This document shows positions 3,845 to 9,872 of a DNA stretch of 10,237 nt, piece by piece. The notes under the pieces were generated by a model, which was not told the DNA's origin, did not search any database, and saw only the letters and a list, made by a program, of their open reading frames with translations. The number at the start of each line of letters is the position of its first letter. Position 1 is the stretch's first letter. The stretch is from a virus (lineage: Duplodnaviria > Heunggongvirae > Uroviricota > Caudoviricetes): positions 1-10,237 of the IMG/VR virus record IMGVR_UViG_2778261151_000009; one strand, given 5' to 3'. The position numbers and the translations under genes were made by a program.

Positions 3845-4000
3845 TTACTCCTCAGGTTCGTAAGCTGTGAAGACAGCGACCTCCGTCTGGCCGGTTCGGA
3901 TTCGTACCTCGCAGAGGTCTTTCCTCGTTACCAGTGCCGTCACTATGACGGTTAAACAGATGACGATAAGGGCGATTAACATCGCCTTTTGCTGCTTCAT
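3845..4000 (-). CDS. hok: Hok/Gef family type I toxin (51 aa)
   Basis: MKQQKAMLIALIVICLTVIVTALVTRKDLCEVRIRTGQTEVAVFTAYEPEE is a single TM helix plus the conserved Hok periplasmic tail. ORF track extends it in frame to an upstream ATG at 4057. Flanked by promoter, terminator and 5'/3' complementary elements. Confidence 0.9.
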   Translation of the reverse strand: MKQQKAMLIALIVICLTVIVTALVTRKDLCEVRIRTGQTEVAVFTAYEPEE

Positions 4001-4176
4001 AGCCTGCTTCTCCTTGCCTTTCGGCACGTAAGAGGCTAACCTACATGTGTTCAGCATGGATTGAGCCTCAGATTAATGTTAAGCGTCTTGCAGGACGCGT
4101 AATGTTAACTGGGGCTTTTCTCTATCTGCCTTTTGGTGTTCATGCCTGAGACAGATAGCCTCAAGCACCCGCAGTC

Positions 4177-6371: not shown

Positions 6372-7442
6372 TTACCCCCTGAAGCCCGGCGGAATTTCGT
6401 TATCCGGTTCAGAAATATGATTCACACAACGCTGGTTGTTCGTGCCGCTTACCGGGAGCAACCAGGGGTTCTCAAAATTCCGGTCCGGTCCAAAAAACGT
6501 CGTCGCTCGCTGAACAAATTCCGTTCCCGTTTTCCCGGTAGCCGCCAGGTATCTTGCGTAACGCCTCACGCCATCCAGCATGGCCTCTGGTGGCACCCCC
6601 TCGCGTAATCTGGCCTTCCAGGCACTGAAAGCGGATTTCTTCGGGTTTGCCCCGGCACGCAACGGGTACTCCCGCCAGACCTGTTCGAACACATCCGGAT
6701 AATCCACTCGTCCCACAGACTGCCCGGTGTTTTCCGGGACTACCCGATCGGCTTCCCGCTGAATGGCGGAATCGGCTTCAGGCTGCTGCAGTTGGTGTGA
6801 TTGCTCCGGACTTGCGGTCATCACCTGCTGCACAGCGCCCGAATCGGCTTTCAGCGCATACGCTGAATCGGCTTCCGGTGTCGTGCCTGCTGGCTGACCA
6901 GGATTGACGGTCTGAACATCCCCTGCCTGGTTCGTGGCGTTTTTTACGCCATGGACCATAGTGTTTTGATCTTCTTGATCTGTATCTTTATCTGTATCTT
7001 TATCTGTCGTGACTCGTCGTGACATGTGCGTGACATATCGTGACGCGCCGTGACAATCGCCATTTTGTTCCCGCTTTCTTTCCCTCTCTCGCTGCGCCCT
7101 CTTGCGCTCTGCAGGAGATTTTGCGGTTTGCGAAATATTGCCGTTGTCCTCTTTCAGCACCTGGCGTTTTTCCCATCCAGTGATTAAATCACCATCAAGT
7201 ACCCGCCCCTGCATCGTCTGCAAAATTGAATCAATTACCTCTTCTGTCACGTCGAGCGCACTTGCCAAATCTTCTGTCGTGACATCAATGTGACCTCGCG
7301 TGACATTTCGTGACGCGCTCACCAGGAGGTGGATATACACTGCCATCACTGTTGCAATTGGCTGCCCTGACACCCTGGCAATTGTTCGCCACTTAGGGTC
7401 ATTTGGCATGTCATGCCATAATCTGAGCCAGGCGTTAGCCAT
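6372..7442 (-). CDS. Putative replication initiator (O-like: N-terminal HTH, low-complexity linker, C-terminal domain) with iteron clusters inside the coding sequence
   Basis: ORF track 6372..7448 (GTG); ATG at 7442-7440 has SD AAGAGGTGA. Position after Cro-like and YdaT-like genes. Acidic repeat linker TTDKDTDKDTDQEDQ; basic stretch KRAQRERERKRE. Two clusters of CGTGAC direct repeats at helical-turn spacing inside the gene. Confidence 0.65.
   Translation of the reverse strand: MANAWLRLWHDMPNDPKWRTIARVSGQPIATVMAVYIHLLVSASRNVTRGHIDVTTEDLASALDVTEEVIDSILQTMQGRVLDGDLITGWEKRQVLKEDNGNISQTAKSPAERKRAQRERERKREQNGDCHGASRYVTHMSRRVTTDKDTDKDTDQEDQNTMVHGVKNATNQAGDVQTVNPGQPAGTTPEADSAYALKADSGAVQQVMTASPEQSHQLQQPEADSAIQREADRVVPENTGQSVGRVDYPDVFEQVWREYPLRAGANPKKSAFSAWKARLREGVPPEAMLDGVRRYARYLAATGKTGTEFVQRATTFFGPDRNFENPWLLPVSGTNNQRCVNHISEPDNEIPPGFRG
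7008..7054. repeat. Iteron-like cluster 1: five direct CGTGAC repeats at 10-11 bp spacing
   Basis: Copies start at 7008, 7018, 7029, 7039 and 7049, immediately preceded by a tandem 12-bp repeat ATCTGTATCTTT x2.5 (6978-7013). Confidence 0.6.
7246..7314. repeat. Iteron-like cluster 2: CGTGAC at 7278, 7299, 7309, variant TGTGAC at 7289, inverted copy GTCACG at 7246
   Basis: Same hexamer and 10-11 bp phasing as cluster 1, about 225 bp away, within the N-terminal coding part of the initiator gene. Confidence 0.55.
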
Positions 7443-9591: not shown

Positions 9592-9703
9592 TTGAAAACC
9601 AGAACGGGTGGAATTATAGTGCACCTGCACCTCATAAAACGGGTGCCGGGCGTGGAAACCCGAAATCATTCACGGCGCATAACCGCGCTCAGGCGGTTTT
9701 TTT
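9592..9703 (+). promoter_or_regulatory. Promoter-terminator unit: -35 TTGAAA (9592-9597), 17 bp, -10 TATAGT (9615-9620); terminator hairpin ACCGC-gctcag-GCGGT plus T7 (9682-9703)
   Basis: Near-consensus sigma70 elements followed about 60-75 nt later by a stem-loop and seven T. Could be a small RNA or an attenuating leader for the Rha-family gene. Confidence 0.4.
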
Positions 9704-9872
9704 ATGCGTTAAGCACAGCCACATTCGCATTATGGTGGGGCGTGCAGGGCAACCGCAAGGCTGGCCGGGTTCCGTGATGACCGGTATTTCCACCCCTGTA
9801 CGTCTCACCACCCTTATGGTCGTGGAAAACCTCGGTGGTGAGTTAATCAAATTCATCGCGGAGGCTGCCATC

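Follow-up and report, generated by a model that had tools for sequence, protein, structure and literature searches.

A tandem hexamer array beside iterons inside a prophage initiator gene: a proposed lambda-style intragenic origin

The initiator gene and its internal elements

The window examined here, the whole 10,237-nucleotide stretch of the Caudoviricetes record IMGVR_UViG_2778261151_000009 (IMG/VR), carries genes in the order repressor, Cro-like, CII-like, initiator and Ren-like. This is the layout of a lambdoid early-right operon, with no P- or DnaC-like loader gene following the initiator. Elsewhere in the window, Rfam matches above the gathering score comprise a sok antitoxin RNA, isrK, a C4 antisense RNA and four consecutive tRNA genes that follow a Q-like antiterminator gene (jointly at 3995-4170 on the minus strand, 9627-9703 and 9728-9815 on the plus strand, and 807-1113 on the minus strand). 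The initiator gene houses all of the elements considered below (Table 1). Near-identical copies of it occur in 1647 of 5426 complete E. coli genomes (~30%), and the module also occurs in a small number of phage isolates, Tritos and Evi among them.

NCBI names the initiator protein 'phage replisome organizer', and it matches PHROG 3729, 'replication initiation protein', over its full length (E 3e-256, residues 1-356 of 356); the replisome-organizer label is taken from the NCBI annotation and PHROG categories only. A Pfam search returned no family above threshold and detected no homology to lambda O (Phage_rep_O), and the SPP1 G38P-type replisome-organizer N-terminal model (PF09681) was absent from the hits at E up to 0.1. 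An AlphaFold2 model built on a 12-sequence alignment predicts a confidently folded N-terminal domain (residues 1-95, pLDDT 85-91), a basic helix (residues 110-126), a disordered linker of roughly 120 residues (128-248, pLDDT ~30) and a moderately confident C-terminal domain (about 250-317). The full-length model had no Foldseek hit in PDB at E <= 0.001; winged-helix regulators ranked highest, at E 0.5-3, but with half of the model disordered these hits are uninformative. A sequence search of PDB gave only a weak match, between the last ~22 residues and the C-terminus of DnaT. The tail concerned, ...VNHISEPDNEIPPGFRG (the final 24 residues, window 6372-6443), bears a weak resemblance to the C-terminal end of this host primosomal protein (NCBIfam E 7e-4, far below cut-off; PDB 6aep/2ru8, E ~0.05), and several C-terminal modules that otherwise differ retain the motif PD..IP.GF[RK]G.

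Table 1. Positions of the initiator gene and of the elements within it
Feature	Positions	Strand	Remarks
Initiator gene, 356 aa, 'phage replisome organizer'	6372-7442	-	Stop codon 6372-6374; houses the whole element
Second array of the linker iteron, four GTGAC 10-11 bp apart	7276-7314		Inside the N-terminal-domain coding region
Disordered-linker coding region (residues 128-248)	6699-7061	-	Holds iterons, tract and palindrome; AlphaFold2 pLDDT ~30
Linker iteron array, five CGTGAC cores (coding strand GTCACG)	7008-7054		Starts at 7008, 7018, 7029, 7039 and 7049
A-rich, purine-rich low-GC tract, 48 nt; proposed DNA-unwinding element	6960-7007	-	Encodes TDKDTDKDTDQEDQNT
Tandem repeat	6973-7007		2.9 x 12 bp; exact part 6978-7007
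Mosaic junction	6967-6985		BLAST hit boundaries
Imperfect palindrome, 11-13-bp arms (GGTTCGTGGCGT TTTTT ACGCCATGGACC)	6928-6958		Directly after the tract

On the coding strand the elements follow one another as N-terminal domain, five iterons, A-rich tract, palindrome and C-terminal domain, with iterons and tract encoded at residues 128-160, in the disordered linker between the two domains. The original prediction placed at this point a 12-bp unit twice in perfect tandem (6978-7001) with a partial third merging into the first iteron, and the sequence agrees in each respect. On the plus strand, exact copies of ATCTGTATCTTT occupy 6978-6989 and 6990-7001, a partial unit ATCTGT occupies 7002-7007, and the C at 7008 opens the first CGTGAC iteron (7008-7013), so that the repeat does abut the five iteron cores as claimed; the plus strand across the repeat reads ...ttgATCTGTATCTTTATCTGTATCTTTATCTGTCGTGAC.... 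Tandem Repeats Finder (TRF) reports a period of 12 (2.9 copies, 95% matches) together with an underlying period of 6 (5.5 copies), and a separate repeat search recovered the same three copies of the 12-bp unit. At period 12 the sequence matches itself exactly over 18 nt from 6978 onward, further than at any other period of 4-30 anywhere in the 10-kb window and further than in any of 200 dinucleotide-preserving shuffles (mean 8.9, maximum 13). Thus, the repeat is real and not a product of chance.

Read on the coding strand, the repeat consists of five GATNMA-type hexamers (GATAAA, GATACA, GATAAA, GATACA and GATCAA). The minus-strand translation runs ...HMSRRVTTDKDTDKDTDQEDQNTMVHG..., and the peptide specified by the repeat is TTDKDTDKDTDQEDQ (residues 147-157). 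The acidic DKDT linker predicted between the two halves of the initiator is therefore borne out by the translation, and it lies between the N- and C-terminal domains in a region of low pLDDT. Two GATC (Dam) sites 9 bp apart (6968-6971 and 6977-6980) mark the distal end of the tract; in several enterobacterial relatives the tract also closes with AAAGATCTAAA, which may reflect mere Asp-Leu or Asp-Gln codons.

The five linker iteron cores are spaced at 10, 11, 10 and 10 bp, about one helical turn. Across 80 near-identical loci, substitutions fall in the iteron spacers and spare the cores, with the exception of a single locus in which one GTCACG has become ATCACG (L072). At 260 bp upstream of the linker array, a second array of this iteron encodes the loop SASRNVTRGHIDVT, and an inverted iteron copy is found at 7245-7256. 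Of 23 relatives checked, 21 have one core common to the two arrays, which change together between GTCACG, GTAACG and GAACGC; the hexamer tract follows the downstream array only. Judged from these two co-varying arrays, an origin at this locus seems to be bipartite.

The palindrome after the tract has a DNA folding energy of -8.7 kcal/mol (z = -3.3) and was also flagged by a stem-loop scan. At the same position, 22 of 43 relatives have a hairpin that ranks in the best quartile for the ORF concerned (p = 2e-4), which lends the downstream hairpin moderate support across the family. Stem-loop and T-rich plus strand could conceivably act as a terminator antisense to the initiator, or the tract as an antisense promoter, and a scan of the plus strand did pick out 6928-6958 plus TAGTGTTTTG as resembling a terminator. 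With 0.7 hits expected, however, a single one does not exceed chance, and other bases break up the T run. The sole promoter-like hit falls in the iterons and none in the tract, and no Rfam family matches at 6900-7100. Because an antisense signal would also leave the conservation of the hexamers unexplained, we regard it as highly improbable.

Several alleles depart from this anatomy. One IMG/VR locus (L134) has gained an extra 10-bp iteron (AGTCACGACA) that shifts the reading frame, one protein homologue (P0012) is missing all linker iterons and the tract (KREQ joined to EDQNTM), and another (P0019, hit H135) is without iterons 2-5, tract and palindrome. These alleles are possibly inactivated origins of cryptic prophages.

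Copy-number variation and module exchange

The best 80 IMG/VR loci all had two units, but this set was biased to identical length and was replaced by a flank-anchored scan of IMG/VR with the pattern GTCACGACA ... AAYACTATGGT, which returned 119 contigs. Two units (39-nt spacing) were present in 100 of these and three perfect units in 11; the other alleles were longer by 6 bp (2 contigs), shorter by 6 bp (5 contigs) or carried the extra 10-bp iteron (1 contig). Three-unit alleles occurred on at least five flank haplotypes. Over 980 nt of flank, as many as 30 substitutions separated the ten three-unit loci with complete flanks from each other, and one of them, with a different C-terminal module, stood ~350 substitutions from the others. 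The nearest two-unit locus was 0-6 substitutions away for nine of the ten and 12 away for the tenth, and one three-unit locus had a two-unit twin with identical flanks. Thus, three-unit alleles have arisen on several backgrounds close to two-unit alleles, indicating that gains are recurrent, as slippage predicts.

Complete E. coli genomes, sampled at even intervals, gave 45 full-length hits, of which 41 had the same length and high identity; the remainder comprised one allele each at -6, +12 and +18 bp and one of the same length at only 94.8% identity. In the 90-95% identity band there were 87 E. coli records. The two-unit allele dominates both the IMG/VR contigs and the E. coli sample (84-91%), and in distant protein homologues the D[KT] runs extend over 2 to 7 dipeptides. 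That slippage would cause linker length to vary among related prophages had been anticipated, and comparison of copy number across homologous prophages in these two collections found such variation, with alleles of 1.5, 2, 2.5 and 3 units. Copy number differs recurrently between near-identical alleles, as in a coding microsatellite, and the tract could serve as a natural length marker for typing these prophages. A phase-variable contingency locus was considered and rejected: units are of 6 or 12 bp, all tract-length alleles remain in frame, and the +10-bp allele is an iteron.

The linker shows a second length polymorphism, associated with a 36-bp direct repeat (6747-6782 and 6843-6878, 75% identical, 96 bp apart) that encodes PEADSA...PEADSA. 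Many homologues of 324 aa (e.g. P0004-P0009) lack exactly the 32 residues between the two copies, consistent with deletion between these direct repeats.

BLAST matches also divide at the tract. Those confined to the C-terminal module end at 6967, those confined to the N-terminal module begin at 6972-6985, and among protein homologues the same tract precedes at least four different, unrelated C-terminal modules. The repeat therefore belongs to the module of iterons and N-terminal domain and marks the junction of exchange. It might be argued that this is its function, that is, that the tract is a patch of homology at which phages swap N-terminal/origin and C-terminal modules; the match boundaries, the variety of C-terminal modules behind one tract and the occurrence of that tract across many lineages would all agree with a recombination joint. 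Yet a benefit to evolvability is a weak selective force, and it would account neither for the AT and purine bias of the tract and its fixed position adjoining the iterons nor for conservation in lineages without a visible exchange partner. We consider a recombination joint very unlikely as the reason for the tract, and module exchange is more plausibly a result of having a conserved repeat within a disordered linker.

A non-homologous initiator (MRDYAKVSPRFW...) carries the C-terminal module of this window (L261, 1500-1570, E. coli VG35A2, minus strand). Behind the three tandem 11-bp AAGGGGCTTYG iterons of this initiator type comes a (GAACAG)n tract of variable length, which specifies (EQ)n and shows no A/T codon bias; the same palindrome comes next, its 9-bp arms perfect here. 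To judge from these sequences, a similar origin design seems to have been built in parallel around another DNA-binding module. The arrangement in three parts is found again here, whereas the AT-richness is peculiar to the initiator family of this window.

Conservation of the A-rich tract across Proteobacteria and Acidobacteria

GC along the gene reaches its lowest value in the tract (0.30-0.35, against about 0.55-0.6; 0.30 at 6960-7000, against ~0.57), and all 16 tract codons end in A or T (ACA GAT AAA GAT ACA GAT AAA GAT ACA GAT CAA GAA GAT CAA AAC ACT). Relatives were collected with N-terminal-domain peptides only, one genome per species, and hence with no selection for the tract. The 60 loci obtained come from Gamma-, Beta- and Alphaproteobacteria and Acidobacteria. 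Of the 56 ORFs that were usable, 47 have their lowest-GC 36-nt window immediately behind the iterons; the other nine had no such low-GC tract in that place. Iterons were located automatically at 43 loci, and at 41 of these the stretch after the last iteron ranked among the lowest 5% of its ORF for GC. In relatives, the tract has 56% A and 77% purine on the coding strand, with a median low-GC length of 48 nt.

The hexamers themselves persist as well. GATAAA and GATACA are found beside all three iteron types (GTCACG, GTAACG and GAACGC) and at gene GC from 0.37 to 0.69: the tract reads CTAGATAAAGATACAGATAAAGATAAA in Pseudothauera (ORF GC 0.69), six copies of GATAAA in Variovorax and five copies of GATACA in Sphingobium. 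In the 60 nt that follow the iterons, GATAMA (M = A or C) reaches a density of 46 per kb, as against 0.23 per kb elsewhere, a 200-fold enrichment. Moreover, at 32 of 41 loci (C/T)AGATW starts 2-5 nt past the last iteron, and it does so in all three reading frames, the AGATA motif being read as TDKD in ACAGATAAAGAT (the DKDK type), as DRLDK in ACAGATTAGATAAG and as PQIRE in CCACAGATAAGAGAAG.

Codon choice was compared between the 16 codons after the iterons and the rest of the ORF in 43 species-level relatives. Aspartate is encoded by GAT in 98% of cases after the iterons and 43% elsewhere (p = 1e-40). Corresponding figures are 77 and 16% for Thr ACA, 82 and 9% for Arg AGA, 91 and 12% for Ile ATA, and 75 and 45% for Lys AAA, whereas Glu GAA does not differ (60 and 58%). 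Restricting the comparison to the 23 ORFs whose GC is 0.55 or higher leaves the bias in place. Since the units of one array are copies of each other, the codon counts overstate independence. Recent acquisition from AT-rich donors was rejected as a source of this composition, since ORF GC (0.37-0.69) tracks the GC of the 5-kb locus and tract GC does not.

These observations bear on a reading confined to the protein, in which the stretch is a flexible acidic spacer between a DNA-binding and a helicase-recruiting domain, its length is tuned by slippage and the DNA has no role in cis. The predicted disorder of the region and the tolerance of length variants suit a spacer, as does the (EQ)n linker of the other initiator type, a hexamer repeat in the same place without AT-biased codons. 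What a spacer leaves unexplained is the near-exclusive use of GAT, AAA, ACA, AGA and ATA codons at host GC of 0.55-0.69, the reading of one AGATAA motif in three frames as different peptides and the fixed distance of 2-5 nt from the last iteron. A role limited to the protein is on this evidence unlikely. Since a constraint on the peptide cannot yield this pattern of codons and frames, we conclude from the comparison of sequences that the tract is conserved by selection on DNA rather than on peptide, an argument that rests on the 43 separate lineages and the changes of frame. With the same hexamers present whatever the host GC and frame, the linker peptide appears to be more consequence than cause. 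The original prediction was right to see an acidic, low-complexity linker that adjoins the iterons and varies in length, and overlooked the constraint at the level of DNA.

A proposed origin and its relation to known systems

From the combined analysis, we think it probable that the 12-bp repeat is the core of an A+T-rich unwinding element in a lambda-style origin inside the initiator gene. We infer that the N-terminal domain of the initiator would bind the five GTCACG iterons, one helical turn apart, and that the resulting strain would melt the adjoining 48-bp GATAAA/GATACA tract, where the host helicase would then be loaded via the initiator C-terminal domain. Because the tract lies in the disordered-linker coding region, a requirement of the DNA would set the peptide and not the reverse, dictating D-K-D-T in a linker that tolerates it. 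Slippage in the array would add or remove units of 6 or 12 bp with the frame kept, producing the length polymorphism. An origin is favored by the finding that the tract stays with the iterons and the N-terminal module when C-terminal modules are swapped. Against it stand the nine of 56 relatives that are without such a tract and the (EQ)n repeat linker of the L261 type, which shows that a repeat linker there need not be AT-rich.

The GATAAA/GATACA array may, more tentatively, be a sequence-specific code, with one hexamer for each protomer of the initiator or of a host factor. Binding could be to duplex or to single-stranded DNA, and the array might then be, with similar reserve, a phage counterpart of the DnaA-trio. 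Such a code would explain why the same hexamer stands beside three iteron types and in three frames, from E. coli to sphingomonads and Acidobacteria; slippage in copy number would tune the efficiency of origin firing, and hexamers read in this way would constitute a new kind of origin-opening signal.

Phage records carrying the module contain no origin annotation. In the literature searched, we found no paper that describes this origin or hexamer array or that maps an origin experimentally for this initiator family, a search by repeat sequence gave nothing relevant, and a paper on the Stx-phage replication region (PMC8044961) makes no mention of iterons or AT-rich tracts. The locus most likely represents an uncharacterized initiator family with a lambda-type intragenic origin not previously described in the literature found. 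The analysis supplies a testable map of the proposed origin, consisting of two iteron arrays, a hexamer-repeat unwinding tract and a hairpin, and the map is relevant because the module resides in some 30% of complete E. coli genomes and has relatives across Proteobacteria. It also offers a case of overlapping constraints, in which a cis-acting DNA element within a gene would dictate the amino acids of a disordered linker.

Among known systems, coding microsatellites and contingency loci share with the array an in-ORF tandem repeat that changes recurrently in copy number between close relatives. Unlike contingency loci, the unit here is a multiple of three, which precludes on/off switching by frameshift, and one allele (two units) dominates. 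The 13-mers of oriC and the repeats of iteron plasmids (RK2, pSC101) are likewise short AT-rich direct repeats beside initiator-binding sites, and GATCTGTATCTTT fits the 13-mer GATCTnTTnTTTT with two mismatches. The fit is no better than chance, with 7 such sites in the window and 4.5 expected, and the present array differs from the 13-mers in its period of 6/12 bp and in that GATC is not conserved in relatives. A model based on DnaA boxes and the DnaA-trio was also rejected: no DnaA-box-like site (TTATNCACA) occurs between 6427 and 7469, the period is 6 and not 3, and the polarity of the trio does not fit.

SPP1 oriL lies in gene 38, where the replisome organizer G38P binds repeats in its own gene beside an AT-rich region. 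The NCBI name and PHROG matches of the present initiator point to the replisome-organizer class of SPP1 and other Firmicute phage origins. It differs from that type in having no match to the Pfam replisome-organizer N-terminal model and in its hosts, which are Proteobacteria and Acidobacteria. To our knowledge, no hexamer array is known for SPP1.

The closest parallel we consider is ori-lambda, in which four iterons (ITN1-4) are followed by ACACAAAAGACACTATTACAAAAGAAAAAAGAAAAGATTATT, encoding DTKDTITKEKRKDY, and then by an inverted repeat. In lambda and Stx phages, the strands part and DnaB is loaded at the AT-rich tract, whose single strands are bound by O protein (PMC3349717, PMC7466680). 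The present locus is unlike ori-lambda in several respects. Its initiator is without detectable homology to lambda O, and the likeness is architectural only; its iteron cores are of 6 bp, in contrast to the inverted-repeat sites of 18-19 bp in lambda; a second iteron array lies upstream; and no P-like loader gene follows. Furthermore, the tract here is a tandem hexamer array whose sequence is conserved across phyla and whose copy number is polymorphic, neither of which is true of the lambda tract. The shared features are nonetheless those of a lambda-type origin: a position in the middle of the initiator ORF, between its two domains; direct repeats about one helical turn apart; and a promoter-distal, A-rich tract of ~40-50 bp whose A-rich strand is the coding strand, followed by an inverted repeat. 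In both, the tract encodes a hydrophilic peptide (DTKDTITKEKRKDY in lambda, TDKDTDKDTDQEDQ here), and the 38 bp of the lambda tract is close to the median low-GC length of 48 nt found in this family.
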